Source: an uncultured Anaerolineae bacterium (GTDB lineage: Bacteria; Chloroflexota; Anaerolineae; VGOG01). Taken from it: a DNA stretch of 64,000 bases. Positions 8,289-25,621 of this stretch are shown here, one piece after another. Made by a program: the position numbers and the translations under genes. The notes under the pieces were generated by a model. It searched no databases. It was given only the letters and a program-made list of their open reading frames with translations, and was not told the DNA's origin. Positions within the stretch are counted from its first letter, which is position 1. Each line of letters begins with the position of its first letter. Location of the stretch: positions 3,638-67,637 of the forward strand of contig CAZEBW010000004.1 of NCBI GenBank assembly GCA_964510205.1. Direction: 5' to 3'.

Positions 8289-8325
8289 AGACGAAACTGT
8301 CGGCGCTCAAAAGGAAAGTCAGCAA

Positions 8326-8787
8326 ATGAAGACCATACTTATCGTCTGCACGGGCAACATCTGCCGTTCACCTATGGCCATGGGGCTGCTGCGGGACAAG
8401 CTGCGGGAGGAGGGATTAGAGGACCAGTACGCGGTATCGTCGGCGGGCGTGTGGGGGCTGGATAGCCAACCGCCTTCCGCGTACGCCATTCAGATGATGG
8501 CGGAGCGAGGTATTGACATCAGCGATCACCGCAGCCGCGACCTCAGCTCGGCGGATGTGGAGGAGGCCGACCTCATTTTGACCATGGAGCGCGGGCAGGC
8601 CGAGGCCATCCGGGTGGAGTTCCCTCAACACGCTCACAAAGTTCATTTGCTGAGCCAGATGGCCGGGCGGCACTACGACGTCCGCGATCCCTACGGCGAC
8701 CCTTTGCCCGAATACCGCCAATGCGCCAACGAGATCGAAAGGTTGATCGGGGAGGGCTATCCGCGCATCATGCAGTTGGTGGGCTGA
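8326..8787 (+). CDS. Low-molecular-weight protein tyrosine phosphatase
   Basis: CTGNICRS P-loop (C-X5-R-S) and a downstream DPYG motif. Start placed at MKTILIVCTGN. Confidence 0.85.
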   Translation: MKTILIVCTGNICRSPMAMGLLRDKLREEGLEDQYAVSSAGVWGLDSQPPSAYAIQMMAERGIDISDHRSRDLSSADVEEADLILTMERGQAEAIRVEFPQHAHKVHLLSQMAGRHYDVRDPYGDPLPEYRQCANEIERLIGEGYPRIMQLVG

Positions 8788-8797
8788 GTGCAGCCGA

Positions 8798-8904
8798 AAT
8801 CCAAAAGAGTGTGGCTAAAATCTGTGGAAGGTAGTAGCGACTTCAGTCGCTTGGAACGACTAAAGTCGTCACTACCACAAGTTTTAGCCACACCCAATCC
8901 AAAA
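8798..8904. mobile_element. MITE-like hairpin element with flanking 9-bp direct repeat
   Basis: 12-bp terminal inverted repeats gtgtggctaaaa (8809-8820) and ttttagccacac (8882-8893), with an internal stem tagtagcgacttcagtcg / cgactaaagtcgtcactac. AATCCAAAA lies 2 nt outside both ends (8798-8806 and 8896-8904). Confidence 0.45.
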
Positions 8905-8906
8905 AG

Positions 8907-8937
8907 GGGAGACCGCCGGCGGTCTCCCCTTTTCTCA
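8907..8937. terminator. Bidirectional rho-independent terminator between convergent genes
   Basis: Perfect stem ggggagaccgcc / ggcggtctcccc, flanked by an A-tract upstream and a T-tract downstream. Confidence 0.7.
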
Positions 8938-8950
8938 TTCTCTTCAGTCG

Positions 8951-9466
8951 TCACCATCCCTCTATGAACTGCTGCCAGTCGGCGTTTTCTTTGACGTAAC
9001 GGCCAAAGAGGTAGGTACTCGTGGCAGCGGGTTCGTAAGGGCGCCGCAGCAACTGCATGTGGGCCTCTTGGAGCGTTCGTCCGCCCTTTCGATGGTTGCA
9101 GTCCGGGCACGCGCTCACCAGGTTCTCCCACTCGTGCTGTCCCCCATTGTGACGTGGGTTGACGTGATCCACGGTCAGGTTTTTGGTCTGTTTCCCGCAG
9201 TATTGGCAGGTGTAGTTGTCTCGCCGGAAGATCTCTTTTTTGGTGAGCTTGACCCGGGGGCGAGGCCGCTTGATCAGGCAGGCCAGCTTGATCACCGAAG
9301 GGCACTGGAAAGTGGTGGAAGGGGTGCGGATGACGCCCCGGCTGTTCTCCAGGACGTCGGCCTTGCCCACCACGACCAGGGTGATGGCCCTCTTGACGCT
9401 GCAAACATTCAGAGGTTCGTAATTTAGGTTAAGCACGAGAACAGGATAATCTAGCAAGCCTCTCAA
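8951..9466 (-). CDS. HNH endonuclease
   Basis: CQYCG...DHVNPRHNGG...N...CPDCNHRKG HNH/zinc motif. Confidence 0.85.
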   Translation of the reverse strand: MRGLLDYPVLVLNLNYEPLNVCSVKRAITLVVVGKADVLENSRGVIRTPSTTFQCPSVIKLACLIKRPRPRVKLTKKEIFRRDNYTCQYCGKQTKNLTVDHVNPRHNGGQHEWENLVSACPDCNHRKGGRTLQEAHMQLLRRPYEPAATSTYLFGRYVKENADWQQFIEGW

Positions 9467-9524
9467 CGATGCCTCCTCTGGCTTTTCGATCCAGTACCGA
9501 TTATAACACGACCTGGCGATTAGG

Positions 9525-10298
9525 TCAAGCTTGCCCTTGCCACAGCCGCCTCAGGCGCAGGTACATCACCAGATTGTAATAAGCCATCAACAGGCTTAGG
9601 AGTAATCCGTGGAAGCCGTCCTTGTAGCCCTCCAGCGAGACGTAGCGCCGCTTGAACTCCCGGAGGGGCTGCAGGATGAAGTTATGCGGCTTGGGCCGGA
9701 CGCCTTGCTCAAACATGATCTTGGCTTCGTAGTCAGTGTAGCGGTTCTGCCTCTGGATGAATTGAGCCAGGGTGTCGTAGTTGTAGTGGATCAGGGGATG
9801 TTCCAGATGCCCCGCTTCGCCGTCCAGGATGACGACCTCGTGGACCTCCCGCTGGGGATCGTAGCGGGCTTGGCCCTGCCGCAGGAGGCGCAGTTGATAG
9901 TCGGGATACCAGCCGGCGTGGCGGATCACGCGGCCGAAGATGTAGTTGTGGCGCGGCGCCCACCAGCCCGACCGCGATTCGTCCTGGATGGCGCGGCGTA
10001 TCTCGGCCGCCAGCTCCGGTGTAGCGCGTTCGTCGGCGTCCACGAAAAACACCCAATCGCTGTCCACGGCATCCAGGGCGGCGTTGCGCTGCTGGGCGAA
10101 ATTCTGAAACGGGTGCTGGAGCACCGTCGCCCCCGCCTCTCGTGCCACCGCCACCGTGCCGTCCTGGCTGAACGAGTCGAAGACCACCACCTCGTCGGCC
10201 CATTTCACGCTGGCGATGCAGTCGGCGATGTTCTTCTCCTCGTCCTTGGTGAGAATGATGACACTCAGCTTCGACCGAGATTGGCTATTTGTCCTCAA
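9525..10298 (-). CDS. Glycosyltransferase family 2
   Basis: LSVIILTKDEEKNI...VVVFDSFSQDGT...FFVDADE (DxD) pattern. Confidence 0.85.
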   Translation of the reverse strand: MRTNSQSRSKLSVIILTKDEEKNIADCIASVKWADEVVVFDSFSQDGTVAVAREAGATVLQHPFQNFAQQRNAALDAVDSDWVFFVDADERATPELAAEIRRAIQDESRSGWWAPRHNYIFGRVIRHAGWYPDYQLRLLRQGQARYDPQREVHEVVILDGEAGHLEHPLIHYNYDTLAQFIQRQNRYTDYEAKIMFEQGVRPKPHNFILQPLREFKRRYVSLEGYKDGFHGLLLSLLMAYYNLVMYLRLRRLWQGQA

Positions 10299-10311
10299 GC
10301 AATCACTCCCT

Positions 10312-11268
10312 TTACGACATCTCCGCCACAGTCCGATACGCTGCCAGGCGTCCTTCTAGTTCCGCTTCGCTGATCTCACCGTGCTCGTGGGCGGCCATCG
10401 CTCGACGCTTCTCCGCTCGCAGTCCCAGCCGCACCATGCGGCGCACAGTCCACTGATAGAAACGGCCATAGTGCTTCTCGAACAGCAGATAGCGGCTCTT
10501 CCACAGGGCCGCAAACATCTCGCCCCGCACCTGCCGGGTGCTCCTGGCCTCGTGGTGCACCACCTCAGCCTGGGGCACGCAGTAGACGCCCCAGCCCGCT
10601 TTCTTCATCCGCAGGCACCAATCAATCTCCTCGCAGTAGATGAAAAACCGTTCGTCCAGCAGTCCCACCTCTTGGATGGCCTCCCCCCGCCCCATCAGCG
10701 CTGCTCCGAGGGGATGGTCAATAGCGAAGGGCTGCCCGCGCTCGTACAGTCGGCGGGGATAGCGGCCGTTGAGGCGGGAGTTGAGCAGGCGGTGATGGAG
10801 GGGGAAAAAGTCGAGAAAGGCCTGGGCCAGGGTGGGGAAGGCGAAGGCCGAGTGCTGCAGGCTGCCGTCGGGATAGAGCAGCTTGGCCCCGGCCACGCCG
10901 GCGCGGGGATTCTCGTCCAAAAAGCGCACCATCGTGGCCAGCGCGTCGCCCAGCACCTCCGTATCGGGATTCAGCAGCAGAACATAGCGGGGCTGCTCGT
11001 GACGCTTGACGGAGGCAAACCCCATCCCCCGCAGCGCTTGGTTGTTGGCCGCGGCAAAGCCCACGTTCGTCTCGTTGGCCATCAGCCTGGCCTGGGGGAA
11101 GCGCTCCCGCACCATCTCGATACTCCCGTCCGTGGAGGCGTTGTCCACTACCCAAACCTCGGCCGTCAGATTCGAGCGTTGCAGGCTGCCATAAACCGAG
11201 GTCAGGCAAGCTGCCAGCAGCCCCCGCACGTTCCAATTGACGATGATGATGGCCAGGTTCGAGTTCAA
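10312..11268 (-). CDS. Glycosyltransferase family 2 (rhamnosyltransferase-like)
   Basis: AIIIVNWNVRGLL...VVDNASTDGS...LLNPDTE pattern. Confidence 0.85.
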   Translation of the reverse strand: MNSNLAIIIVNWNVRGLLAACLTSVYGSLQRSNLTAEVWVVDNASTDGSIEMVRERFPQARLMANETNVGFAAANNQALRGMGFASVKRHEQPRYVLLLNPDTEVLGDALATMVRFLDENPRAGVAGAKLLYPDGSLQHSAFAFPTLAQAFLDFFPLHHRLLNSRLNGRYPRRLYERGQPFAIDHPLGAALMGRGEAIQEVGLLDERFFIYCEEIDWCLRMKKAGWGVYCVPQAEVVHHEARSTRQVRGEMFAALWKSRYLLFEKHYGRFYQWTVRRMVRLGLRAEKRRAMAAHEHGEISEAELEGRLAAYRTVAEMS

Positions 11269-11400
11269 GCCTCCCTCCTGCAGAAGCGACGTGTGCTACT
11301 GGCCTAGATTATACTCGTGGTGGGGTAAAAGGCAAGCTCTGGTTGGGGAGAAAAGAAAGAGGCCATCCCGGTGGGTGAGGGGTGGGATGGCCCGGTCAAT

Positions 11401-11430
11401 TTGACAAGATTAGAACATGTGTGCTATAAT
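11401..11430 (+). promoter_or_regulatory. Near-consensus sigma-70 promoter
   Basis: TTGACA (11401-11406), 18-nt spacer ending in TGc, TATAAT (11425-11430). A GAGGAGGGA RBS precedes ATG 11486. Confidence 0.55.
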
Positions 11431-11725: not shown

Positions 11726-11840
11726 ACCCGGCTGATTGATTCTTAACCCCGATGCCATTCTCCACTGGGACGCCAGGCATGCTTTGTGCAAGGCGTGTCT
11801 GCTGCTGGTCTCGGTAGAGCGGTTGCGATGCCCCCACTTT

Positions 11841-13340
11841 TCATGGAAGCGGTGGCAGTAGTATCCTATTGATGGTTATGCCCCACTGGTCACTTCTTCG
11901 TTCAAGCCCTTCCATTAGTTGCTGGCATGCTGTGGCCTTGTTCGGCGGATCATGTACATCCTGTTGCCTGTATCCACATAACGCCTCATTCAGGAGCACG
12001 GCCATTTCCTGCACGATTTCTTTGTCCCAAATAGTCTTCATGTCGGCTTCGGTCAGTTTTTTCTTCTTGGTCTTCTTGTGGTTATTCTCACCAGATTCTC
12101 TAAAGAAGTGAGGTGCATGAACCGCTTTTTCCTTATTGACCTGGTAGTAAACTACTGGGGCAAGCTGCAAGACCCCATCTGCTAGTGCGACTTTCTGTTT
12201 GGGGCAACGGCATCTCAGCTCCATGGTCGGGATTACAGCTTGAATTTGGCTGTACAAGGGAAGCTGAAGAATACTTTGACCTTCTTCCAGCACCCTGATT
12301 TCGCGACTGTCTCCGATCACAGCAATCCTGTCGGGTGGGACGGTGAAGGTGAACGCCCTGTATCCAACGAGCACCAGAAGGACAAGCAAGAGTGGCAAGG
12401 CCGTACCCGCGGCAGTCAAGACAACGATGTGCAGTGAACTGCGCACGGAAAGCAGTATGCTCGCCAGCAGCATCAGTAGTACAATGACCACAAAGCCTGC
12501 CAACGCGCTGACAAAGGCGAGCACAGGGCTGGACAGTATTAGGTTGATGGCATCGCGAGCGTATGTGAGCAATGTCTCGAGTTGAATAGCAAGCGATGGT
12601 GGAGATTGCTCCGCCGCTCCGTCCTTCTCCTGCTCTGACGGCCTCATGCCTTGCGGACTGGCGTCTCCAGGTGGAAGGGATTCTTCGTCAATGTCCTCTG
12701 AGTTCATGGCTAGTCGTTCCGTCGTTTGCTCAGGCATACTCTCTTCACCCTCCTCTTGTTTTTGCTTCGCCTCTTGGCCTGACGGCTCCGTTTGTACGGG
12801 ACCAGCTCTTCCACGTCGAAGCGGTCCTCCGCCGGTATCTCCTGAATCCATGGCTACTTGTTGGTCTCGCAGGATCTTCCGGTATCGTGACTCGACTGTG
12901 CGCCTTAGGCGGCGGTCCATGTCCTGCAGCAGTTCCAGGCTGCGTGAACAGGCTTGACTTGCCTTGAGCCATTTGCCTTGGGCCTCGCACACCGTGGCCA
13001 ATCCAAAGAGGGCTACTGCTTGACTATGTTTGTCACTCAGAAAGAAGCGAGTGCTCTCTTGATACTTGTTGGCTGCCTCATCCAAGTGTTCCTGAGCGTG
13101 AAAGATAGCTGCGAGGTGAATAAGGGCTACCCCTTGAGCATATGAGTCATCCAACATGTCCAATTCGAGAGATCCTCTTGCTGATCTAATGCTTTGCTCA
13201 GCTATCGATTGGGCTGCTTTGTACCGGCCAGCTCGTCGCAGTTTGTCGGCCTCCTTGTTGAGCACGGTACCGCGATTAGTTCGTTCTCTTAGTTGGCGTA
13301 TGATCTGGTTGGCTTGTCGGTGGTAAGGATCGGATGTCAT
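11841..13340 (-). CDS. TPR-like N-domain / acidic linker / 2 TM / divergent SPFH (band-7)-like C-domain protein
   Basis: N-terminal helical-repeat region (AAQSIAEQS...LFGLATVCEAQGKWLKA), an E/S/P-rich linker and two hydrophobic helices. The C-terminal pattern (RIAVIG..REIRVLEEGQ...VVYYQV...WGITINRILLPP) is collinear with the SPFH fold. Start set at MTSDPY (ATG 13340). Confidence 0.55.
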   Translation of the reverse strand: MTSDPYHRQANQIIRQLRERTNRGTVLNKEADKLRRAGRYKAAQSIAEQSIRSARGSLELDMLDDSYAQGVALIHLAAIFHAQEHLDEAANKYQESTRFFLSDKHSQAVALFGLATVCEAQGKWLKASQACSRSLELLQDMDRRLRRTVESRYRKILRDQQVAMDSGDTGGGPLRRGRAGPVQTEPSGQEAKQKQEEGEESMPEQTTERLAMNSEDIDEESLPPGDASPQGMRPSEQEKDGAAEQSPPSLAIQLETLLTYARDAINLILSSPVLAFVSALAGFVVIVLLMLLASILLSVRSSLHIVVLTAAGTALPLLLVLLVLVGYRAFTFTVPPDRIAVIGDSREIRVLEEGQSILQLPLYSQIQAVIPTMELRCRCPKQKVALADGVLQLAPVVYYQVNKEKAVHAPHFFRESGENNHKKTKKKKLTEADMKTIWDKEIVQEMAVLLNEALCGYRQQDVHDPPNKATACQQLMEGLERRSDQWGITINRILLPPLP

Positions 13341-13419
13341 TGAAGTCCCCCCATAGAAGGAAAGCCCACCGGGATGCAGGAGAGTTGGGCCGGATAAACT
13401 AAGGTGTTCTGCGATATCG

Positions 13420-14727
13420 CTATGGGCTGCCAGGCGGCAATGCAATCGCTGATCTTATGGATTGCAGAGTGGCCATCACGTCGGAAGGCAGAAGGATCTT
13501 GGTCGCTGGATCGGAGGCCATTTTCTCCAGAGCTTCAATGAAACGCAAGGCTATGAATTGTGGAATCGGGATGTTCTTAGTCTCCATCTGACGGAAGCCT
13601 TCGGTGATGGCTATGATCATTCTAGTTTGAGCTTGTGCTCTGGCAACCTCAATCAGGTTATATACTTCAGCCTGTGCCTCGCCTTCAGTGATGAGGACTT
13701 GCTTGCGACTCTCCGCCATGCGCGCTTCCCAGTCTACTTGCCATTTCTTTTGCATTCCTTCCCTAATTTCCGGAGGCACCTCAATATTCAGCATCTGAAA
13801 GCTTATGATAGTGCCTCCCCAGCCTTCGGCTATCTTTCGCAGGGAATCTCGGACACGCTGCTTGATGTCGCTTTGAGGGAACGTGTTGGGATCCAGTGGG
13901 TCAAAGATATCATCCAAGTAACGTTTGCCAATCTCGTCGCGAAGCAGATTCTTGGCTACTTCGATAGTGGCGATTTCCCAGTCATAGCTATCGTAGGTAG
14001 CTTTGAGGACCGCCTCTCTAGAGAATGGATAGGGCTTCTCTGGGTTCCACACCTTGGCTGGATCCTGCGCGATGCGGAATAGAACGCTATAGTGGATGGT
14101 CACCGGTATGCCATCTTTGGTTGAGGCATTATCTAGCGTTCCTCTCCTGAACCGTTTCCGTGTGACGATGACCTTCCTGATACTTTCAAAAGGCTTGGTG
14201 CGCACTGCACCGGGCCCCTCAATGCGAGTGAATTTCCCCATCCGCTCGAAGACAACGGCTTGCTCGTTGCGTATTACGATCAAATTGGCTACCTTGAAGC
14301 CGGCGAGTGCGCCTTTGGACTTCACCTCGTCCACTTGGCCATCTTCAACGATGATGTAGCTTCCCAGGAATAGCTCTCCGGTGACAAAAGAGAGTAAATA
14401 CCGAAAGCAGTCCCACTGATTGCCGCCCCGGCTGACCAGTATGAGTTGCGAGGCCAGAAACAGGAGACTGCCTGTTAAGAATAGATAGACAGCCAGCCCC
14501 AATACTGCCCCCGTCAGGCCTCTCGTGACGAAGGAGAAGGTCAGAAACACCCCACTTGCAGTGAAGAATATCGCCAGCGCCACGCCCTTGCTCTGGCCCA
14601 TCCTGACAAGACACCCAAGGGAGACCACAGCGAGCCATACTAGGCCCCATTTGGGCTCGTGAACTACAGAGACTAAAATCAGTAGTGGAAGCAGGGCTAC
14701 GGACAACACAAGCAAGATCTTCTTCAT
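13420..14727 (-). CDS. SPFH/band-7 (stomatin/prohibitin-like) membrane protein
   Basis: Four N-terminal TM helices, then VIRNEQAVVFERMGKF...TKDGIPVTIHYSVLFRI...GWGGTIISFQMLNIEVP and a coiled-coil tail. AAGGAGAG RBS precedes ATG 14727. Confidence 0.75.
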   Translation of the reverse strand: MKKILLVLSVALLPLLILVSVVHEPKWGLVWLAVVSLGCLVRMGQSKGVALAIFFTASGVFLTFSFVTRGLTGAVLGLAVYLFLTGSLLFLASQLILVSRGGNQWDCFRYLLSFVTGELFLGSYIIVEDGQVDEVKSKGALAGFKVANLIVIRNEQAVVFERMGKFTRIEGPGAVRTKPFESIRKVIVTRKRFRRGTLDNASTKDGIPVTIHYSVLFRIAQDPAKVWNPEKPYPFSREAVLKATYDSYDWEIATIEVAKNLLRDEIGKRYLDDIFDPLDPNTFPQSDIKQRVRDSLRKIAEGWGGTIISFQMLNIEVPPEIREGMQKKWQVDWEARMAESRKQVLITEGEAQAEVYNLIEVARAQAQTRMIIAITEGFRQMETKNIPIPQFIALRFIEALEKMASDPATKILLPSDVMATLQSIRSAIALPPGSP

Positions 14728-14903
14728 AGCACAAGCTCTCCTTGTTTCTGTCAGCACTCTTAAGGTACGTGAGACTGCCGTCCAGTGCGTTCAACACGAG
14801 CTTATCTGACGGCGCCACAGGTATCACCCAGTTTCCATAGATCGAGGCAAAACCAAAAGGCCGCGGCTCGATATCGAAAACGTTTTGCAATGAGGGTGCT
14901 CAC

Positions 14904-16418
14904 TCAGCTCTGGGCGATCAAAATGGGGGAAGCCCAAGTCAAGTCATCCTTATTACGCATTGCCAGCTCTCGCCGGGCATCCAGCAGTGCCAGTTCAGGG
15001 CTGCCGTGCTGGAGCATAGAACGATAGAACGCCAGTGCCATTTCCTTGGCGCTCACTGCCGGCACTGACCACCTGTAGCCCAAAACAGACGGCACCCCTG
15101 ATTGGATAATTCCATCAGCGATACCCAGGTAGTCATCGTCCAGCAAATCAACCGGGCTGCCGGTACGAGTGCCCTCGCAGCACGTCAGGTGAAACAAACG
15201 GGTGTCAGAATCTTCCAACAGCCATCTCAGCTCATTTCCGGTCATTGGCTTTATATTCCCTGACCGGTTGCTGTCTTCCCAGAAGAACAATCTGCTCTGT
15301 TCCGGAGACCCCTCGTGAAAGACTCCGTGACCAACATAATGCACGATGTGATGCTTACACCCACGGAGCATTTCTTGCACTGCACTGTATGTAGCTGCTT
15401 CGGTTCTGACATGAGTCAAATCCAACCAGTTCAGTGGCGACAGCAAATCCACCAACTCTTCTCCGATTTTGTCAATCAGATCAATGCGTGGCTCAGTGTT
15501 GGACACGAGCAGTAGAACACGCAGGTTCTCGCCTGAACTGGCGAGACGTCGTATGAGTTCAGCAGAGATGGGTTCACGCCTCGTCACTACGCCTCGAATT
15601 TGGCGGACCATTGGATGGAGCAGTGTAAGGTAATCACCAGCCTCATCGGAAAAGATGAACTCCAGTGGCAATCCTGCCAGATCTCGGGTGGATTCAAACA
15701 CGAGGTGCAAGTATTGGTTCATTTGCGTCCTACCGAGTGCTCGGTGATACCCGTTGAGTACCGCAGAGTGCTGTTCGAACAGCAGGCGGTATAGCTCCCG
15801 TCCCACGTCTTTGATCAGAAAGCGGCGGTCTGCTGTGCTCATCATGCGTTCGCTTCCCCAGCGTGCAAAACGTGGAGCGTCGAGGCTTAGTGGATTGACA
15901 GAGGTGTATGTGAAGCGGATGTTGCCACGGCCCCGCACAAGAAGTCGCTGCCCTGGCTCTAGCGAGATTGTAATTTCGCACTCTTGGCTCGGCTCAAAGA
16001 CCGGCAATTGCCATTTCAATGACCTACTGATCACGCTATCCATCACTTTAACCACATCTTCTATCATGGTCTTTGGGAGGTACTCGGCTACAAGTCGCCG
16101 TCCAGTTGCATCAGGTTCCAGGGCGCGCCTCATCGTGTCAGGGGTACCATAGCCGGTGATAATGACAATCGGGAGCCCAGGGAATCGTCGTTTAAGCTCA
16201 GCAGCTAGATCAAGGCCTTCTAGGTTGCCTTCATCTGTCTCGTCCAAGCGCATGTCAAGTAGGGCTGCGTCGAAATGCTCTCGGTCAGACAAATCCAGGG
16301 CTCGCGCAACACTGGCAGCCGTTTTGGTTGCGTAGCCCTCGTCAATCAAGAGTTGTGAAAGGGTCACTCGCCAGTCAAACAAATCATCTACGATAAGCAC
16401 CTGGATTTGTTTAGTCAT
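14904..16418 (-). CDS. Response-regulator receiver fused to CHAT (caspase-like) peptidase domain
   Basis: REC features: VLIVDD...LLDMRLDE...ITGYG...LPK. CHAT features: HIVHYVGHG (His), LFHLTCCEG (Cys), SVLGYRWSV. The ATG overlaps the stop of the upstream kinase by 8 nt. Confidence 0.85.
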   Translation of the reverse strand: MTKQIQVLIVDDLFDWRVTLSQLLIDEGYATKTAASVARALDLSDREHFDAALLDMRLDETDEGNLEGLDLAAELKRRFPGLPIVIITGYGTPDTMRRALEPDATGRRLVAEYLPKTMIEDVVKVMDSVISRSLKWQLPVFEPSQECEITISLEPGQRLLVRGRGNIRFTYTSVNPLSLDAPRFARWGSERMMSTADRRFLIKDVGRELYRLLFEQHSAVLNGYHRALGRTQMNQYLHLVFESTRDLAGLPLEFIFSDEAGDYLTLLHPMVRQIRGVVTRREPISAELIRRLASSGENLRVLLLVSNTEPRIDLIDKIGEELVDLLSPLNWLDLTHVRTEAATYSAVQEMLRGCKHHIVHYVGHGVFHEGSPEQSRLFFWEDSNRSGNIKPMTGNELRWLLEDSDTRLFHLTCCEGTRTGSPVDLLDDDYLGIADGIIQSGVPSVLGYRWSVPAVSAKEMALAFYRSMLQHGSPELALLDARRELAMRNKDDLTWASPILIAQS

Positions 16419-17205
16419 GGCTGCTATCCGTGGGAGTTTCTATGGCTTTGATCACAGGGAGTGTGATCGCTATCGTCGTGCCGTGGCCAATCTCAGTATG
16501 TTTTACACTAATCTCTCCACCAAACCTGGCAAGTATCAAATGCGCTAACCAGAGACCCAGGCCCTTGTTGGTCCCGGTTGACGGAATCGGACCCTGAAAA
16601 AGATCGGCAAGAATGAGTTGCGGTATCCCTGTTCCGTTATCTGCAATCTCTACTCGCACTGTGTTGTCCGCGTCCACGTACTGGGTATGGATGTCAATAT
16701 GTCCGGGTTTTTTGCTTGTTGCTTGGATCGAGTTTTCGAGCACCGCCCGGAAAACCTCCGCGAGCAAGTGGCTATCAGCACGCACGGGAGGGACATCCTC
16801 TGGAAAATCAAAACTCACCCGTACTGTCTTGGAAGTGTGGCTAGCAGAAAGTTCTTCCCAGACCTCATACAGCAGTGAGTTTACGTCTAAGGGCATAGGC
16901 GGCTCACTCGGCTCTCTGAGTACTTCGACGGCGGCACTTAATTCGCTCAAACTGCTAATGGTCTTTTCTATGGCTGTGACCAGGTCGAGGGCGGCTCTAT
17001 CGTTGCTATTGATGTATTCCTTAAGACGACCGACTCGAACTCCCAGCAACCCAGTCAAGTTGGAGAGCTGGTGCAGTAATGCAGCAGAAGCCATCCCCAG
17101 TGCAATGAGGCTGGCCTCCTCCCCGTGGCTACGGTTAGGATGTGCACTTTCTTGCGGTAGGGGTGGATTTGGTCTCTGACTTTCCCGGTCATTTGGTGGA
17201 CTCAT
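16411..17205 (-). CDS. Sensor-less cytoplasmic histidine kinase (DHp + HATPase_c only)
   Basis: H-box-like AALLHQLSNLTG. ATPase N/G boxes VLENSIQAT, IADNGTGIP, GLGLWLAHLI. No TM or sensor domain. Confidence 0.8.
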   Translation of the reverse strand: MSPPNDRESQRPNPPLPQESAHPNRSHGEEASLIALGMASAALLHQLSNLTGLLGVRVGRLKEYINSNDRAALDLVTAIEKTISSLSELSAAVEVLREPSEPPMPLDVNSLLYEVWEELSASHTSKTVRVSFDFPEDVPPVRADSHLLAEVFRAVLENSIQATSKKPGHIDIHTQYVDADNTVRVEIADNGTGIPQLILADLFQGPIPSTGTNKGLGLWLAHLILARFGGEISVKHTEIGHGTTIAITLPVIKAIETPTDSSHD

Positions 17206-17241
17206 TTGTCGGATTCTCCCAAGCGCGGCGCGTCCTTCAGT

Positions 17242-18717
17242 TCACTCCTGATGAATCAAGATAGGCGACAACCAGGTTGGATCGTTTCTGTCCATAGCGG
17301 CCAGCTCGCGCCTTGCGCTCCAGAGGGCGAACTCCGGCCCCCCTTGCTCCAATAAGGACTGGTAGAAAGCCAACGCCAGCCGACGGGCTCCATCATCTGA
17401 CACAGGCCAGCGGAAGCCCAGCACCGAGGGTGCGCCGGCCTGCGCGACAGCGTCGGCCAGCCCAAGGAAATCGTCATCCAGCAAAGCAGCCTGAGCGCCG
17501 CTGGCTGTGCCATAGCAACTGCTCATGTACACCAGACGTGCTTCCGAGCGCCTGAGTAGCATCTTTAGTTCGGTTGCTTTCATCGGCATGACGCCACCTT
17601 GCTTATTCTCCTGGGCCCAGAAGTATAGGCTGCTATCTTCAGGGGACTCGGTCCTGTACGAGCCATGTCCTGCGTAATGTACAATGTCGTAACTGGGCTT
17701 CCCCAACTCTGATCTTACGCGCTCATACGTGGCGCGCTCCGTGGGGATGAGTTTAACACTGACAGGGATGCAGTCCTGGCTCTTTAAGTACTCGTACAGT
17801 GCCTGCGCCTCGGCATCTACGCCGTCTATTGGAGGCTGTGTGTTAGAGGCGATAATCAGAATTCGCAATTCCTGAGTCAGTGCCAGCAGCGAAGGGGAAA
17901 TCAGGCTGCGTTTCGGGGTAGCATTGTATAGAAAACGGGCGAGGGGGTGTTGAAGTACCAGGTACTCTGGAGGATCATCCGAGCGCATAAATTCCAATGG
18001 TAGTCTGAGAAATTCCCTGGGCGTCTCAAAAAGCATTGAAAACGACTGGCTCTTGGCGCGCGCTTCCACATAGGCTTTTTCGGCTTCAGGGTGCTCAGTA
18101 AATATGTCACGCCACAGACTGTGGCCGATCTCCCCAACCTGGAAACGCAAATTGCTCACGTCTCTTCTGGCGAGTTCTGTCCGCCTTGCATAGCGTTCGA
18201 GTGCCACACGCAACACTTTCCACGAGCGCAAGGAACAGACGTGGCGACCGCGCGCCCTGATCACCAGAGGCTGTCCGGCTGTGAGTGATAGAGATAGCTG
18301 GGTAGCATCACCTGTCTTCTCAAACCTCGGCTTGGTTGCCTCCTGGCGTGCTTTCGCGATAGTCTCCAGAACTTGTTCAGCCACATCCGGGGTTTTTTCG
18401 ATGAAGTCAACTACTCCGAGATATCGAATCGCGCGTACAATTTGCTTGGTTCTCGGGTAGCGTGTGAGCAGGATGACGCGAACCCGCGGATTGAGGGCGC
18501 GGAATGCCATCGCCAGGCTCAATCCGCTTTCGTCCTCTTCATCATCTCCGTGCAGGCGCACGTCAATGAGAGCAAAGTCGAACGGTTCTTGCGTGACAGC
18601 AACCAGGGCTTGTTCCTCGTTGGCCGCTGACCGGACGGTGTATCCTTCATCGGAAAGTCGCCCTGCTAACGTGGTACAGAAATCGGCATGGTCATCTACT
18701 ATCAGAATCTTGCACAT
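17242..18717 (-). CDS. Response-regulator receiver fused to CHAT (caspase-like) peptidase domain
   Basis: REC features: ILIVDD...LIDVRLHGDDEEDE...LLTRY...IEK. CHAT features: DIVHYAGHG (His), LVYMSSCYG (Cys), SVLGFRWPV. Start chosen at MCKILIVDD (ATG 18717, GAGGG RBS); upstream in-frame ATGs at 18732 and 18768 are possible. Confidence 0.85.
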   Translation of the reverse strand: MCKILIVDDHADFCTTLAGRLSDEGYTVRSAANEEQALVAVTQEPFDFALIDVRLHGDDEEDESGLSLAMAFRALNPRVRVILLTRYPRTKQIVRAIRYLGVVDFIEKTPDVAEQVLETIAKARQEATKPRFEKTGDATQLSLSLTAGQPLVIRARGRHVCSLRSWKVLRVALERYARRTELARRDVSNLRFQVGEIGHSLWRDIFTEHPEAEKAYVEARAKSQSFSMLFETPREFLRLPLEFMRSDDPPEYLVLQHPLARFLYNATPKRSLISPSLLALTQELRILIIASNTQPPIDGVDAEAQALYEYLKSQDCIPVSVKLIPTERATYERVRSELGKPSYDIVHYAGHGSYRTESPEDSSLYFWAQENKQGGVMPMKATELKMLLRRSEARLVYMSSCYGTASGAQAALLDDDFLGLADAVAQAGAPSVLGFRWPVSDDGARRLALAFYQSLLEQGGPEFALWSARRELAAMDRNDPTWLSPILIHQE

Positions 18718-18757
18718 TGCTACCCTCTTCATCAACTGTCTGATGGGACGCTCCGGG

Positions 18758-19639
18758 TCATCCAGCATTCCCCCAATTTGCCTGTATGTAACTCGTTGTC
18801 GCCTTTACGTCCAGGCTGCGAGTCGAATTGCCAATACGCACCCAGAACTTGTGAACATCGCCCGTCGCCAGGAACACCGGCTTTGGGCTTTTTTCAATCG
18901 CAACGATGCAGACGTGTTTACCATCTATGGGTTCGAAGCGTGTGCGAATGTATGGCATATATTCTAGACCCACATAGGTCTTGACAATATCCGTCAATGC
19001 CAATTGAAACCCATCGGTATTTGGCTTGCGCAGAGTTTGTAAGTCTTTTTCAATACCTAGCACCGTGCCATCGTCAGCGACGCCAATGAGTAGGGTCCCA
19101 CCCTTGCTGTTCAACATTCCTGTGATTGCCACGGCGATCGTTTCCTGCAGGCTCTTGTTAGTTGTGTTTTTCTTGAAATCCCAGCGGATACTGGACTTGA
19201 ATTCCACGTGGTCATTTTCACCTTGGGCAATCAAATTGAGTACCGAGCGTTCAAATGCGCGGTTCACGTACTCCGGCAGTTGGTCTACTTCAGATTTTTC
19301 CAGGAAGCCAAACGCTGGTGATACTCCCTCGCGATCAGGTTGAAGGACCTCCCTCACCATCCTGACGTTTGCATAGCCGGTCAAGATAATGATGGCCACA
19401 TGGGGGTCCTTCTCTCTGATCTCGCGCATAAGCAAGATGCCATCTTGGTTGTCCTCGTCGGCCTCGTCCAAGCGCACGTCCAGAACTGCGACGTGAAAAC
19501 GCTCGGCGTCCAACATTTGCAGAGCCTCAACTCTGCTGGATGCCGAGCGTACTTCATAGCCTTCGTCTGACAAAAGGCCCGACAATGTTGCGCACACGTC
19601 GGGCAGGTCATCTACTACGAGAACGCGACCTTTGTACAT
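18758..19639 (-). CDS. Response-regulator receiver fused to AlbA_2 (Schlafen-like, putative nucleic-acid-binding) domain
   Basis: REC features: VLVVDD...VLDVRLDEADEDN...LTGYA...LEK. C-terminal features: GENDHVEFKSS...MLNSKGGTLLIGVADDGTVLGI, matching the AlbA_2/divergent-AAA pattern. AGGAG RBS precedes ATG 19639. Confidence 0.75.
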   Translation of the reverse strand: MYKGRVLVVDDLPDVCATLSGLLSDEGYEVRSASSRVEALQMLDAERFHVAVLDVRLDEADEDNQDGILLMREIREKDPHVAIIILTGYANVRMVREVLQPDREGVSPAFGFLEKSEVDQLPEYVNRAFERSVLNLIAQGENDHVEFKSSIRWDFKKNTTNKSLQETIAVAITGMLNSKGGTLLIGVADDGTVLGIEKDLQTLRKPNTDGFQLALTDIVKTYVGLEYMPYIRTRFEPIDGKHVCIVAIEKSPKPVFLATGDVHKFWVRIGNSTRSLDVKATTSYIQANWGNAG

Positions 19640-19665
19640 GGCACTCCTGCCGATTGCATCTTGTC

Positions 19666-20067
19666 TTATCGTGCCAACACTTCCTGTACTATCTTGACCA
19701 ACTCTTCGGTCTGGGTTTTCGGGATATAGTTCGCTACAAGTCTCCGGCCCTGCGTATCTGGCTCCATTGCCCGTCTCATGGTATCCGGCGTGCCGTAGCC
19801 TGTGATCATTACGACTTCGGTAGTGGGCCAATGTTGTTTGATCTCATCCGCCAGGTCCAGCCCCTCGGTGTTACTCTCGTCCGTCTCGTCCAGGCGCATG
19901 TCCAGTACTGCCAGATCAAAATGGCTGGTTTTGAGCAACTCCAATGCCGCAGGCGAAGACTCGGCAACCTGGACATCGTATCCCGCGTCCTCCAACAAGC
20001 CACCGAGCGTCGTGCGCCAATCTAGCAGGTCATCTACCACCAGAATCTTCTGCCGTTTGTTTGTCAT
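19666..20067 (-). CDS. Stand-alone response-regulator receiver
   Basis: ILVVDD...VLDMRLDETDESN...ITGYG...IPK. Closest in sequence to the REC of the 14904-16418 protein. Shows an ATGA start/stop overlap with the upstream gene. Confidence 0.9.
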   Translation of the reverse strand: MTNKRQKILVVDDLLDWRTTLGGLLEDAGYDVQVAESSPAALELLKTSHFDLAVLDMRLDETDESNTEGLDLADEIKQHWPTTEVVMITGYGTPDTMRRAMEPDTQGRRLVANYIPKTQTEELVKIVQEVLAR

Positions 20068-20453
20068 TCTCTTACTCCTTCGTGCTTACCATGGCGATTA
20101 CGCGGCACCTGTGGAAACAGAATGATCTCCCTGACCTGCTCGAAGAGATCCTCGCTTCCGAAAGACTTGGCGAAGTAGCGCATGGCTCCCAACCGGTAGG
20201 CCGCAAGCGCCTCTTGGGTCGTGGGTTGTACTGTTGTTACGACCACCCGCTTATCAGAGTATTTCTCAGCGATGACTGCAAGCACGTCCAGGCGGCGGGA
20301 GCTTGCGATGACCAGGTCGAACTGATCCGCTTCGAGTTCAGCGAGTGCTGCCTTGGTGTCAGGCGCAACGACGATTTCAAACTTGTTGAGATCGCTCTTG
20401 GCGAACTCAATCCAGCGAGGTTCGTCGTCAATGATCAGAATGCGAGTTTTCAT
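20064..20453 (-). CDS. Atypical (pseudo-)receiver domain protein; phospho-acceptor Asp replaced by Ser
   Basis: ILIIDDE...FDLVIASSRR...VVVTT...FAKSF. The acidic pair, Thr and Lys are kept, but the D57-equivalent reads S. AGGAGG lies 7 nt upstream of ATG 20453. Confidence 0.7.
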   Translation of the reverse strand: MKTRILIIDDEPRWIEFAKSDLNKFEIVVAPDTKAALAELEADQFDLVIASSRRLDVLAVIAEKYSDKRVVVTTVQPTTQEALAAYRLGAMRYFAKSFGSEDLFEQVREIILFPQVPRNRHGKHEGVRE

Positions 20454-20455
20454 GA

Positions 20456-23400
20456 TCACACCTCCTTTCCCGTCCCCGGCGCTGGGATCTGAACCAGCAT
20501 TGTTGTTCCAGTGGGATCGGTCTCTTCTATTATAGCATCACCGCCAATACTTTGCAACATCAGTCGGCTGAGCCAGAGACCCAGACCTGCCCCTCCGCCT
20601 GGCTCCTTGGATGGGACTGGTTTGACGAAGAGACGTTGCTGGACTTGCAGTGGGATGCCCGGTCCTGTATCCTGAACCCGCACACAGATATTACTGTCGG
20701 TCAGACGACTGGTAACTGCTAACTGGCCACCCGCCTTCATTGCTCGGTAGGCATTGTCAACCAAGTTGTAGAAGACCTCAGCGATCTGACCGATCGGGGC
20801 CCGAATCTGCGGCAGCGATTGATCCAGGTCTAGGGTATGTTCGATCGTTGATCGAATGGGATCCGTTCGCCACTGTTCTCTCACTTTACCCACCACGTCA
20901 CTCAGCACTGCGTTAATGTCCACATCCTGATCCTCGACCTCTCGCAGCGGTTCTTGAATGCGCGCGATGATATCCGACGTATAGCGGGCGTTACGTTCGA
21001 TGATGTCAAGGATCTCTGCAATCGTATCATTCGACATATCAACGCGCTTCCGCAGGCGCGTCACGTTGGGAACGATGATGTTGAAGGTATTATTGACACG
21101 ATGTTGTAAAGCTGCGATGGCCGTGCCCAGTGTGGCCAAGCGCTTGGTCGCGATGACTTCACTGCGTGCCTCCTCATATAACCGGGCATTCTCAAGGGCA
21201 ATGGCTGCCTGGTTGGCCATAGAGGAGATGACCTGCAAGTCCTGTTCATCGTAGGCCTGCTCTCTTTCCCAGTCGTAGATAGCGATCACGCCCAGAACCC
21301 TATTCTCCAGAACCATCGGGACACCTATCCAAGATTTGGCGACACGCCCGATGAACTCTTGATGTCCGGGCTGTCCATACCACGCTTTAGATTCCACTTG
21401 GGTGCGATGCAGGATTGGCTTCTTGGTAAGGATGACTTCTTCGGTCTTACCCCGCTTCTCCATATCAGCCTTGCGGGGATCGTAATGCACCTGCTCACCG
21501 TGCTCCGTTGCCAGACCGAAGCGGATCATCCCTGTTTCCTCGTCATACAGCGCGATGTACATGTCCTGTGCGCCGGTCAACTCCCTGGCCTGCTCGTAGA
21601 TTAGCTCCAGAATCTCATCTTGCTTCAGACGAATACCGGAGGTTAGTGCCTGTCCTACCTCATTCAGTGCCGCCAACGCCTGAACGCGCCGTGCGAGCTG
21701 CTGGTTGATCTCGTAGTAAAGCGTTGCATTATCCAACGCGATTGCCGCTTGGTTGGCCACAGAGGAGATGACCTGCAAGTCCTGTTCATCGTAGGCCTGC
21801 TCTCTTTCCCAGTCATAAATGGCGATCATACCCAGTACCTTCTCACCTGTGACCATGGGAACGCCCAAGTAAGAAGGCTGAACACGCCCGATGAACTCTT
21901 GATGTCCGGGCTGTCCATACCACGCTTTAGATTCCACTTGGGTGCGATGCAGGATTGGCTTCTTGGTAAGGATGACTTCTTCGGTCTTACCCCGCTTCTC
22001 CATATCAGCCTTGCGGGGATCGTAATGCACCTGCTCACCGTGCTCCGTTGCCAGACCGAAGCGGATCATCCCTGTTTCCTCGTCATACAGCGCGATGTAC
22101 ATGTCCTGTGCGCCGGTCAACTCCCTGGCCTGCTCGTAGATTAGCTCCAGAATCTCATCTTGCTTCAGACGAATACCGGAGGTTAGTGTCTGTCCCACCT
22201 CGTTCACTGCCTGTATAGCTTTATACAAGCGTGCGCTTTTAATAGCAACCGCTGCTGCCCCAGCTAGGGCCTCAACCAGACGCATGTGATCGTCTGTAAA
22301 GGCTCCGATTTGGGTACTCTCCAGATTGAGCGTTCCAATCACTCTGTCACGGTGTATCAACGGTGTTGTGAGTTCGGATTGTACTTCCTCAAACCACTCC
22401 TTGTAGTACGGATCGCTTTTGATATCGTTGCAAAGATATGTCTTTCTACTCAAGGCAACGTGTCCGTTGATGCTCGTCTCGTCTAGGGGTAGTCTCGTGA
22501 GGGTTCGCGTCGGCGTCTCATCCCTCTTGTTTCTCGCCCCAAATCGCAGTTCACGTGTCCGCTCGTCCAGCAACCAAATACTCGTATACTTGGCTGGCGT
22601 CAGCCTGGCCGCTTGCTCTGCGATTTGCTCCAGCAGATCCTCTAGGGAAGCAGTGCCAATGAGCGCGTATAGGTTCTGAAGAGCTCTGATATCATCAATT
22701 CGCTCTTGTAGGCTAGTCTGAGCCTCTTCGTACACACGGGCGTTATAGATAGCTGTCGCCGCTTGATTAGCGAACAGCTCGATAGCCCCCCGTTGCTCAG
22801 GAGTGAAGGGTTGTCGGCTCCGGTAATTGACGAACATAGCGCCCACGGTTTCGCCTGCTGCTTCGAGGGGGACGGCGGCTGACGATAGGATTCCCTCGCG
22901 CACTACAAAGCGCTTTTCCGGGCGCTCAGGGCGCTCTACGGTGAATGGGCCGGTGAGCAGGGTATCCGTCTGAGTATCGGGAGAGTAGAGGGGCTCTCCA
23001 CCCTCGACCACTTTCACAACGACATCATCCTTGAATATTTCGTCCTTGACAACTGTGGGGTCTCGGCGCTCTCCTTCCAAGATAGGTGGCATGATGTAAC
23101 GGTCATCCGCCTCAACGTACTGGTACACATCCACGAGATCGGCACCCAATACACTCCTGGCACTTCGCGCCACCTGACGCAATACCTCTCTCAACCCCTG
23201 TGCCGAAAGCTCAGCCGAGAGTATTCGTCCCCCAATCTGGTGCAGCCTCTGCAAGACTGCAGCCCGGCTGGTTGCCTGCTCAAGAAGTTGAGCATTGTGT
23301 ACAGCCACGGCGGACTGGCTGGCCACCGCCTCTAACAGCATCTGATCGTGCTCGTCAAAGCCGCTCAGCCCGTCCATATCAGCAGAGATCACCCCAATAA

Positions 23401-24193
23401 CCTCGTCTTGCAAGATTATGGGCGCCAGCACCATTGAGCGCTCGACGATGTCTGACGACAAACCGGGGACAAACTGAGGGTGCTTGACCGCATCCGGGAC
23501 GAGTTCTGATTGCTTGGTTTGGGCTACCCACCCGGCCAACCCGACCCCTTGGGCGAACTGCTGTCGTGCGATGCCTGCTGACGAGGCAGCTTCCAACGCT
23601 AGGTCACCGCTCTTATCCACTAGAAAAACGCTGATGTGCTTGCAATCCAGCACTCTTTCTGCGGCTTGCATAATGCGTGCGAAAAGATCGGCACGGCGCA
23701 ATTCGGAACTGATCAAGAGGCTCACTGCGTTCAGGGTCGCCAGATCCTGAATTCGACGCTGCGTGGCAGCCACTTGAGCGGAAGAACTCTCAATCAGCGC
23801 CTTCTCGAAATCAGTGAAATCCCTTGCCTCACGGGTATAAACGTCAAGCACACCAACGATTTTCCTTTTTACTCGTAGTGGTACCACCATAGCCGACTTC
23901 AGTCCCATAGCGGTGGTTTCTGGTTTGTACTTCCAGCGAGCATCGGTGTCAACGTCTGTCACGACGATTGCCTGTTCAGTCGCAAAAACGTCAGACGCGA
24001 CACTGGGCTCATCCAGGCGCAGAAACGCATCGCGAACGTATTCCTCTGACAACTCTGTCGCTGCAGCGATCCGGAGGGTTTCCCCCGTTTCATCGGCAAG
24101 CCAGATACAGGCCGGCAGTCCCAGAGTCTGGCTTATGGTCTCCACCACGGGTTGAAAGAACTGCTTTTTATCAAGTTCTTGAGAGGGGATCAT
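20456..24193 (-). CDS. Multi-GAF cytoplasmic histidine kinase (HisKA_2-like H-box + HATPase_c)
   Basis: 1245 aa with about five to six GAF-like modules judged by periodic motifs (e.g. VPL...VIGVL...). The C-terminus has AALQHRVNNTFN (an HRVxN-type H-box) plus LVDNAYRAM, VQDTGPGIP, GLGLWLSRLM. No TM segment. AAGGAGAG RBS. Confidence 0.9.
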   Translation of the reverse strand: MIPSQELDKKQFFQPVVETISQTLGLPACIWLADETGETLRIAAATELSEEYVRDAFLRLDEPSVASDVFATEQAIVVTDVDTDARWKYKPETTAMGLKSAMVVPLRVKRKIVGVLDVYTREARDFTDFEKALIESSSAQVAATQRRIQDLATLNAVSLLISSELRRADLFARIMQAAERVLDCKHISVFLVDKSGDLALEAASSAGIARQQFAQGVGLAGWVAQTKQSELVPDAVKHPQFVPGLSSDIVERSMVLAPIILQDEVIGVISADMDGLSGFDEHDQMLLEAVASQSAVAVHNAQLLEQATSRAAVLQRLHQIGGRILSAELSAQGLREVLRQVARSARSVLGADLVDVYQYVEADDRYIMPPILEGERRDPTVVKDEIFKDDVVVKVVEGGEPLYSPDTQTDTLLTGPFTVERPERPEKRFVVREGILSSAAVPLEAAGETVGAMFVNYRSRQPFTPEQRGAIELFANQAATAIYNARVYEEAQTSLQERIDDIRALQNLYALIGTASLEDLLEQIAEQAARLTPAKYTSIWLLDERTRELRFGARNKRDETPTRTLTRLPLDETSINGHVALSRKTYLCNDIKSDPYYKEWFEEVQSELTTPLIHRDRVIGTLNLESTQIGAFTDDHMRLVEALAGAAAVAIKSARLYKAIQAVNEVGQTLTSGIRLKQDEILELIYEQARELTGAQDMYIALYDEETGMIRFGLATEHGEQVHYDPRKADMEKRGKTEEVILTKKPILHRTQVESKAWYGQPGHQEFIGRVQPSYLGVPMVTGEKVLGMIAIYDWEREQAYDEQDLQVISSVANQAAIALDNATLYYEINQQLARRVQALAALNEVGQALTSGIRLKQDEILELIYEQARELTGAQDMYIALYDEETGMIRFGLATEHGEQVHYDPRKADMEKRGKTEEVILTKKPILHRTQVESKAWYGQPGHQEFIGRVAKSWIGVPMVLENRVLGVIAIYDWEREQAYDEQDLQVISSMANQAAIALENARLYEEARSEVIATKRLATLGTAIAALQHRVNNTFNIIVPNVTRLRKRVDMSNDTIAEILDIIERNARYTSDIIARIQEPLREVEDQDVDINAVLSDVVGKVREQWRTDPIRSTIEHTLDLDQSLPQIRAPIGQIAEVFYNLVDNAYRAMKAGGQLAVTSRLTDSNICVRVQDTGPGIPLQVQQRLFVKPVPSKEPGGGAGLGLWLSRLMLQSIGGDAIIEETDPTGTTMLVQIPAPGTGKEV
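21211..22200. repeat. In-frame 540-bp tandem duplication (one GAF module) inside the kinase gene
   Basis: 21342-21648 is identical to 21882-22188 (307/307 by eye). 21221-21274 is identical to 21761-21814. The roughly 65 bp between the two blocks are strongly diverged. Confidence 0.9.
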
Positions 24194-24228
24194 GGGTCAC
24201 TCTCCTTGTCATCTGTAAATGGGCAGAT

Positions 24229-25569: not shown

Positions 25570-25621
25570 TTTCTAGCTCCAAATCACGCGATACACCGAA
25601 CGTTATTGTAGATGCATGAAT

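Follow-up and report, generated by a model that had tools for sequence, protein, structure and literature searches.

Two receiver-CHAT proteins and a sensor-less histidine kinase within a ten-gene operon of an uncultured Anaerolineae bacterium: a candidate two-component conflict system

Results

Two REC-CHAT genes belong to a ten-gene operon

We analyzed a 64,000-nucleotide (nt) stretch of the genome of an uncultured Anaerolineae bacterium (assembly GCA_964510205.1, contig CAZEBW010000004.1, positions 3,638 to 67,637; hereafter the window, whose first letter is position 1). The subject is a pair of proteins, REC-CHAT A and REC-CHAT C, in which a receiver (REC) domain is fused to a caspase-like CHAT protease domain, together with the histidine kinase encoded between them. 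Positions 14904-18768 of the minus strand hold three open reading frames (ORFs) of 504, 264 and 508 or 491 amino acids (aa), and both the ORFs and their Pfam domains agree with the initial annotation of two REC-CHAT genes flanking a sensor-less kinase. The trio does not stand by itself. REC-CHAT C, the kinase (hereafter the mini-kinase) and REC-CHAT A are genes 6-8 of an operon of ten minus-strand genes, extending from 25650 to 11841, that encodes three further receiver proteins. The features of the operon, one of which is a paralogue of alanyl-tRNA synthetase (AlaRS), are as follows:

25622-25650, minus strand: consensus sigma-70 promoter-like site (TTGACA-17-TATAAT with TG extension, perfect match), about 50 nt 5' of the first gene
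24229-25569, minus strand: AlaRS-like paralogue, 446 aa (Pfam tRNA-synt_2c, E=5e-70)
20456-24193, minus strand: cytoplasmic six-GAF histidine kinase, 1245 aa (Pfam; DHp with H1031 in LQHRVNN, and HATPase_c)
20064-20459, minus strand: sREC1, stand-alone pseudo-receiver, 131 aa (receiver alignment)
19666-20067, minus strand: sREC2, stand-alone receiver, 133 aa (D-D-D-T-K intact)
18758-19639, minus strand: REC-Schlafen/AlbA_2 protein, 293 aa (Pfam Response_reg, E=1.2e-18; SLFN_AlbA_2, E=2.8e-18)
17242-18717, minus strand: REC-CHAT C, 491 aa, or 508 aa from 18768 (Response_reg, E=8e-16; CHAT, E=1.5e-33)
16411-17205, minus strand: mini-kinase (sensor-less histidine kinase), 264 aa (HATPase_c, E=5.5e-18)
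14904-16418, minus strand: REC-CHAT A, 504 aa (Response_reg, E=1.9e-15; CHAT, E=4.4e-27)
13420-14757, minus strand: SPFH/Band 7 protein, 445 aa, or 435 aa from the ATG at 14727 (Pfam Band_7, E=9e-18; hydrophobic N-terminal region)
11841-13445, minus strand: TPR membrane-like protein, 534 aa, 499 aa in the public gene call (Pfam TPR_12)

The promoter is a predicted site, called from its match to the consensus. Because the domain E-values are strong and the gene order is kept in independent genomes and metagenomes, the arrangement of genes and domains is far beyond chance. The operon also differs in composition from its surroundings: the G+C content is 0.50-0.55 within the island (window positions ~11800-26000) and ~0.58-0.65 on both sides, which is consistent with horizontal acquisition. 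Gene content, motifs, fold, synteny, effector exchange and receiver swapping, as reported below, were all computed.

Both CHAT domains keep the catalytic dyad

For REC-CHAT C we favor the start at 18717 (491 aa) over that at 18768 (508 aa), because homologues share the resulting N terminus (MC-KILIVDD) and a purine-rich stretch lies 5' of the ATG at 18717. The two proteins scored 95.7 and 117 bits against the CHAT model (PF12770), for which the gathering cutoff is 24. REC-CHAT A carries HYVGHG at residues 360-365 and LTCCEG at 411-416, with the dyad H364/C414; in REC-CHAT C the equivalents are HYAGHG at 347-352 and MSSCYG at 398-403, with the dyad H351/C401 and the phospho-acceptor D52. Among 48 aligned REC-CHAT homologues, D55, H364 and C414 (A numbering) are invariant and T88 and K116 nearly so. 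The receivers of A and C both retain the acidic pair D11/D12 as well as D55, T88 and K116 (A numbering), and are thus of the phospho-acceptor type, as initially proposed.

In order to place the dyad on CHAT structures in the PDB, a profile of 15 sequences was needed. Searches of the PDB with the whole REC-CHAT proteins using phmmer returned matches to the receiver alone, and a single CHAT-only sequence gave one marginal match. With the profile of the protease lobe, H364 and C414 aligned to positions 355 and 402 of the SAVED-CHAT chain 8TL0, which correspond to H375 and C422 after a constant offset of 20. In the SAVED-CHAT paper these two residues lie ~4 Å apart and their double mutation abolishes protease activity. 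The family alignment therefore puts the proposed His/Cys dyads of both proteins at the true catalytic positions.

Structure prediction agrees with this assignment. The AlphaFold (AF2) model of REC-CHAT A has a predicted local distance difference test (pLDDT) score of 88.8, and H364 and C414 come right after strands 358-363 and 408-412. The best Foldseek matches of this model were Csx29/TPR-CHAT, separase, DdvA and SAVED-CHAT, with E values of 2e-10 to 3e-8 and a probability of 1.00 for Csx29, TPR-CHAT and separase. The comparison also changes the view of the ~150-aa linker that had been placed between the receiver and the CHAT domain. Because Pfam CHAT begins at residue 204 and at least 389 Foldseek columns align to Csx29 and separase, most of this segment is the N-terminal half, or lobe, of the CHAT module; a small beta unit (residues 146-177) does precede it. 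We also considered this segment as an EAD-type adaptor and rejected the idea: no window protein matched an EAD model (Pfam, E<=0.01). An EAD7 domain occupies the same place in one related locus (L087).

REC-CHAT proteins form a large family, with 3,622 clusters at E<=1e-30; full-length REC-CHATs make up about 100 of the best 150. Near CHAT relatives carry STAND/NACHT, HD-CE, GAF, Death-like-REC or TIR-REC N termini.

The mini-kinase is sensor-less and coupled to REC-CHAT A

The mini-kinase had been described as consisting only of DHp and ATPase domains, and this holds: HATPase_c is its sole Pfam domain, and the predicted fold comprises DHp and CA domains only. The AlphaFold model has a disordered tail (residues 1-25), a DHp hairpin (26-95, with helices 26-64 and 70-95) and a CA domain (105-251). 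Residues 1-35 have pLDDT <50, no sensor or transmembrane domain was found in the protein, and the kinase models of NCBIfam align to it from about residue 24-35 onward. The family comprises 16 clusters, all of 210-314 aa. In their alignment no variation occurs at H45, N158, D189xG191xG193 or G215xG217 and hardly any at F203, so that the H, N, G1, F and G2 boxes are all represented. The protein shares 30% identity with the six-GAF kinase over the catalytic core of the latter, H box included; helix 1 of the DHp domain differs after the His.

The stop codon of the mini-kinase overlaps the start of REC-CHAT A by 8 nt (ATGACTAA), where the reading is ...AGC CAT GAC TAA / ATG ACT AAA. This junction, noted in the initial annotation, is read directly in the DNA. 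The same 8-nt overlap is seen in two other loci (L008 and L091), and the ..HD* ending of most mini-kinase homologues fits an overlapping ATGAC-TAA junction of the same kind. The mini-kinase and the second CHAT gene are optional, and most cassettes lack them. From sequence, the mini-kinase is predicted to be a bona fide kinase, without a sensor, whose translation is coupled to that of REC-CHAT A. Because the CHAT dyads, the receiver residues and the mini-kinase boxes are all intact, phosphorylation-gated protease activity, as first suggested, is their natural reading; proteolysis itself is predicted.

The upstream genes encode a sensor kinase, stand-alone receivers and a Schlafen-like effector

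The AlaRS-like protein consists of the catalytic and tRNA-recognition part alone, without the editing or C-Ala domains. It aligns to N-terminal fragments of AlaRS in the PDB and keeps the class II motif arginines. Its family alignment shows ETVIGTER as an invariant motif, opposite DTGMGLER in the aligned AlaRS structure, which indicates an altered amino-acid pocket, and a four-cysteine insert (C-x3-C-x3-C-x-C) before GRFVEF. The score against TIGR00344 was 224 bits, below the cutoff of 457, and the match covers positions 2-417 of the 847 in the model, so the protein is not a full-length AlaRS. NCBIfam models otherwise gave generic kinase and receiver matches, along with this sub-threshold alaS match. 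A search with the protein returned 600 clusters at E<=1e-60, of which the best 120 are nearly all ~445 aa long. In every cassette examined, the AlaRS-like gene adjoins that of the GAF kinase.

Within the GAF-kinase gene, a 540-nt tandem duplication (21186-22181) adds one GAF domain. The copies share a core of 300 nt with 100% identity (21342-21641 and 21882-22181), and over the 149 nt next to it they are 79% identical. The repeat would thus be due to duplication or gene conversion of very recent date, unless it is an artefact of the assembly.

The sREC1 gene overlaps the GAF-kinase stop by 4 nt. Its product is a pseudo-receiver, because a Ser stands in place of the phospho-acceptor Asp (IASSRR); this Ser is found in 4/4 aligned loci (the window, L002, L004 and L017). 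It also lacks the acidic insert that the true receivers share after this Asp. In L089, sREC1 is fused to sREC2, which is a candidate phosphate sink, or buffer. The receiver of the REC-Schlafen protein keeps the equivalents of D11/D12, D55, T88 and K116. At residues ~139-191 of the Schlafen/AlbA_2 domain, E-x4-E-F-K ... GVADDG (motif GVxDDG) could be read by eye, which we take to correspond to the acidic triad of the Schlafen tRNA/rRNA nucleases such as SLFN13, and the protein aligns weakly to the structures of SLFN13 and SLFN12. Together with the AlaRS paralogue this motif suggests, speculatively, a tRNA-centered theme of trigger and effector.

The last two genes of the operon encode the SPFH and TPR proteins. 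The TPR protein has a hydrophobic, membrane-like center, and its residues ~360-530 are weakly similar to the core of the neighboring SPFH protein (BLASTP E=0.009). In six other loci (L017, L019, L021, L024, L088 and L091), SPFH genes lie beside the cassette, on its upstream or its downstream side, and two of these loci (L088 and L091) have a Band_7 pair and a TPR protein. These proteins may be partners or substrates of the CHAT proteases.

The cassette is conserved and its effectors are exchanged

To assess conservation, 86 fetched loci were surveyed by phmmer with the window proteins, and precomputed gene calls were used in addition. More than 15 Chloroflexota loci share a core of AlaRS-like protein, multi-GAF kinase, pseudo-receiver, receiver, receiver-effector and REC-CHAT (L002/12, L004/11, L006, L007/10, L014, L017, L019, L021, L022, L026, L030, L032, L087, L088, L090 and L091). 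Its occurrences cluster in filamentous Anaerolineae and in other Chloroflexota. Metagenome-assembled genomes (MAGs) of Deltaproteobacteria, Acidobacteriota, Bacteroidota and Myxococcota contain a minimal pair, in which a large kinase is followed by a REC-CHAT.

REC-CHAT C is the orthologue of the single REC-CHAT present in most cassettes. The mini-kinase and the second CHAT gene were found in the window, L004/L011, L008, L090 and L091. In L091, a metagenome contig, the operon of the window recurs in full, with its Band_7 pair and TPR gene as well as the mini-kinase and the second REC-CHAT. The effectors vary. The effector of the third receiver is Schlafen/AlbA_2 or the kinase-like TCAD9/APH, depending on the locus; L087 encodes a REC-EAD7-CHAT protein; and in L089 the CHAT arm is replaced by REC-EAD11 and EAD11-trypsin.

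Mobile elements or toxin genes abut the cassette in two of the loci: a phage-type integrase and a DnaG-like primase in L004 (11582-17729), and a ParE toxin pair in L002 (11714-12185).

Receivers have been swapped among the paralogues of the operon

In the receiver tree, sREC1, sREC2, REC-(SLFN/TCAD9) and REC-(CHAT C) form separate orthologous groups. The receiver of REC-CHAT A falls within the sREC2 group and is 58-61% identical to sREC2. In a homologue of REC-CHAT A (P0002), the CHAT part is 97% identical to that of the window protein and the receiver only 46%; this receiver is 66% identical to that of the REC-Schlafen protein of the window. These sequences indicate that receivers were recently swapped or recombined among the paralogues of the operon. 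Such swapping is most easily tolerated if the receivers draw on a common phosphodonor. We had also considered deriving the kinase-receiver pairing from the receiver phylogeny; the tree showed receiver recombination, so that no pairing can be derived from it.

The initial annotation had suggested that the GAF kinase feeds one protease and the mini-kinase the other. In its strict form, the GAF kinase would phosphorylate REC-CHAT C and the other upstream receivers, and the mini-kinase would exclusively serve REC-CHAT A. We consider such insulated wiring possible but doubtful. It fits the 8-nt coupling of the mini-kinase to REC-CHAT A (also in L008 and L091) and the consistent ..HD* ends, the low identity of the mini-kinase to the GAF-kinase core (only 30%, with the differing DHp helix 1), and the finding that a CHAT gene follows wherever the mini-kinase occurs. 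However, an independent input is not evident for a kinase without a sensor, and the CHAT gene after the mini-kinase in L090 has no receiver. The A receiver, being of the sREC2 type in the window and of the REC-Schlafen type in P0002, fits a shared phosphodonor specificity. The coupling to A is present in several lineages; the swapped receivers weaken the insulation, and the proposed division of labor is uncertain.

Discussion

A proposed, horizontally acquired conflict system with several outputs

We propose that the operon is a horizontally acquired, multi-output two-component conflict system, acting in abortive infection or programmed death with a logic similar to that of Detocs, and give this reading a probability of roughly 55%. 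It is based on the Detocs-like design, the connections to EAD, Death-like, TIR and STAND proteins, and the island character of the operon. The hallmarks of conflict systems include the exchange of effectors (REC-EAD11, EAD11-trypsin and REC-EAD7-CHAT), the CHAT relatives fused to TIR, Death-like and STAND domains, the integrase and primase in L004, the ParE toxin in L002, and the low-GC island.

Under this reading, the six-GAF kinase, paired with the AlaRS paralogue, would detect an intracellular signal and autophosphorylate, and the phosphate would flow on to the family of paralogous receivers. Leaky signaling would be buffered by sREC2, probably together with the pseudo-receiver sREC1. The effector-fused receivers would switch on the Schlafen/AlbA_2 domain and the two CHAT proteases. 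Phosphorylation of D52 and D55 would most likely drive dimerization or oligomerization of the REC-CHAT receivers; this would bring the CHAT domains together and open the sites at H351/C401 and H364/C414, as for SAVED-CHAT and caspases. The mini-kinase and REC-CHAT A would constitute an optional, translationally coupled second stage, either an amplifier or a second protease with different substrates, and the adjacent SPFH and TPR membrane proteins are candidate partners or substrates. The routes of phosphotransfer, activation by oligomerization, the substrates, the trigger and the role in defense or death are what we infer from the computed features.

In Detocs, the kinase DtcA is accompanied by DtcB, a buffer receiver that prevents auto-toxicity, and DtcC, a receiver-effector, and the effectors can be swapped. 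The operon resembles it in having a sensor kinase, a stand-alone receiver and a receiver-effector together, and in the exchange of effector domains between homologous operons. The resemblance is one of design only. The operon differs in that its sensor is a cytoplasmic multi-GAF kinase always paired with the AlaRS-like protein and that several receiver-effectors are present per operon (CHAT, Schlafen/AlbA_2 or TCAD9, not PNP). There is also an extra pseudo-receiver and an optional second, sensor-less kinase. As to homology, we found no PNP domain (Pfam) and no Detocs-type PADLOC match, the presence of Detocs models in PADLOC 2.0.0 not having been verified. Anti-phage defense is known for Detocs, while the operon described here is known from its genes alone.

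The protease arm is closest to SAVED-CHAT, from a type III-B CRISPR/CBASS hybrid, and to TPR-CHAT/Csx29 of Craspase. These proteins are the best structural matches, and all have a His/Cys dyad gated by an N-terminal sensor module, with H375/C422 of SAVED-CHAT aligning with H364/C414. Their substrates are encoded nearby. The gate differs: here it would be a phospho-receiver, rather than a SAVED domain that binds cyclic oligoadenylates or a TPR bound by Cas7-11. The operon is not a Craspase either, which has a TPR N terminus, Cas7-11/gRAMP and Csx30; the N terminus of the REC-CHATs is a receiver and no gene of the operon is Cas-like. Separase and HetF share the two-lobed architecture of pseudo-protease and protease (Foldseek 5fc2 and 7nj1). 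However, the Foldseek alignments with separase show 11-16% sequence identity, and the HetF model is matched with a score far short of its cutoff. Neither protein has an N-terminal receiver, and the operon has no securin-like or cell-cycle context.

The conflict systems built on EAD and Death-like adaptors (Kaur, Burroughs, Iyer, Aravind 2020/2021) use the same kinds of effectors (CHAT, TIR, trypsin and APH/TCAD9) and are likewise enriched in filamentous bacteria, and their adaptors EAD7, EAD11 and bDLD1 occur in relatives of the cassette. They differ in the switch, which is STAND, MoxR-vWA or GTPase there and a histidine kinase here, and the window proteins have no EAD detected at the threshold given above. 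In those studies receivers are occasional effectors, and there is no histidine kinase among the vWA-associated effectors. PorX-type response regulators are alike in that a receiver is fused to an enzyme instead of a DNA-binding domain and that activity is coupled to phosphorylation and dimerization. The structural match to PorX comes from the receiver only (TM ~0.22), and the PorX effector is a PglZ phosphodiesterase rather than a protease.

Alternative readings

Several observations weigh against a conflict system. We found no tRNA adjoining the island in the window, a scan of ten ORFs on its two sides (7743-11307 and 25705-33704) showed no integrase, and the flanks of the operon are housekeeping genes. 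No PADLOC system model matched; there were weak matches of receiver or CHAT domains to SduA, PDC-M60B/C, BovA, SAVED_CHAT and PD-T4-6. All hosts are uncultured MAGs, and the system is known from its genes. With regard to the proposed mechanism, sREC1 is predicted to be unable to accept phosphate, and the mini-kinase may, judging from its sequence, be a kinase, a phosphatase or both. What GAF kinases sense is usually a metabolite, and some CHAT proteases, HetF and separase among them, act in development as well, so that a regulatory role in filamentous Chloroflexota is a possibility.

The main rival is housekeeping or developmental signaling, in which limited regulatory proteolysis, for instance in the control of filaments or cell division as with HetF and separase, would take the place of killing. 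The GAF kinase would sense a metabolite or the nutritional state, and the AlaRS-like protein would report on amino-acid or tRNA status. The chromosomal position amid housekeeping genes, the concentration of the cassette in filamentous Anaerolineae and other Chloroflexota and the weak NCBIfam match to HetF are in keeping with this, as is the classic role of GAF domains as sensors of small molecules. SPFH proteins commonly scaffold and regulate membrane proteases (for instance HflK/C-FtsH), which would also suit such a role. We nevertheless think it unlikely in view of the low-GC island, the modular exchange of effectors that include Schlafen, TCAD9/APH and EAD-trypsin, the near relatives fused to TIR, Death-like and STAND domains, the integrase and primase neighborhood in L004, and a buffered receiver layer as in Detocs.

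Less probable again is a version centered on the AlaRS paralogue as the sensor or signal generator of a tRNA-centered immune or death pathway. The paralogue would monitor tRNA or aminoacylation status, or would make a messenger derived from an aminoacyl-adenylate that the GAF domains read, and the phosphorelay of the GAF kinase would fire a Schlafen-like tRNA/rRNA nuclease together with the receiver-gated caspase-like proteases. The initial annotation had also raised the mini-kinase as a possible protease target or relay. A proteolytic cascade of this kind appears very unlikely: REC-CHAT C, once phosphorylated, would cut the N-terminal tail of the mini-kinase (or a different operon protein), and the mini-kinase, switched on in this way, would then activate REC-CHAT A. 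The gene order (C, mini-kinase, A) would suit it, the tail (residues 1-25) is predicted to be disordered and is variable, and there is a precedent in SAVED-CHAT, which activates PCaspase, a second protease encoded nearby. Yet the tail has no conserved motif able to serve as a cleavage site, most cassettes consist of one REC-CHAT and no mini-kinase, and direct evidence for such a cascade is absent.

Novelty and implications

The operon, which we take to be probably a defensive-type two-component system with caspase-like effectors, is apparently undescribed. Our literature search turned up no characterized REC-CHAT and no account of either REC-CHAT proteins or the AlaRS-like/GAF-kinase cassette, although an earlier mention in PMC7685563 (Burroughs and Aravind 2020) is possible. 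The cassette is not mentioned in two conflict-system papers from the Aravind laboratory or in a 2025 preprint on modularity.

As a compact system the cassette combines unusual parts: an AlaRS paralogue, a pseudo-receiver, a buffer-like receiver, parallel effectors and an optional sensor-less kinase stage. To our knowledge, the bacterial immune proteases with a caspase fold described so far are triggered by CRISPR complexes, cyclic nucleotides or messengers made by TIR proteins. A receiver-gated CHAT protease, if confirmed, would make aspartyl-phosphorylation a new trigger and would link the largest bacterial signaling family directly to caspase-like proteolysis. If the operon is a defense or death system, it would extend the principle of Detocs to a new phylum and new classes of effectors, and would bear on the evolution of apoptosis-like pathways in multicellular filamentous bacteria. 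Were the AlaRS paralogue to act as the sensor, the operon would be a two-component bacterial counterpart of the eukaryotic responses that lead from translation stress to Schlafen proteins and caspases, and would contain the first phosphorylation-activated protease with a caspase fold.

Other features of the locus and its relatives

The flanking genes of the operon (31248-33704 and 7743-8288, both on the plus strand) encode a Lon protease, a Mur ligase-family protein, a GH99-like protein, a ribosome hibernation factor and a low-molecular-weight phosphotyrosine phosphatase. Another sigma-70 site, with a TG extension and a perfect 12/12 match to the consensus, is found at 11401-11430 on the plus strand, just past the 3' end of the operon and pointing inward; it may act as an antisense or a convergent promoter, or be a chance match. 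In two of the related loci an ORF of 221 aa that matches no Pfam model follows the last CHAT gene (L088, 15022-15687; L090, 12322-12987), the likeness between the two being one of length.

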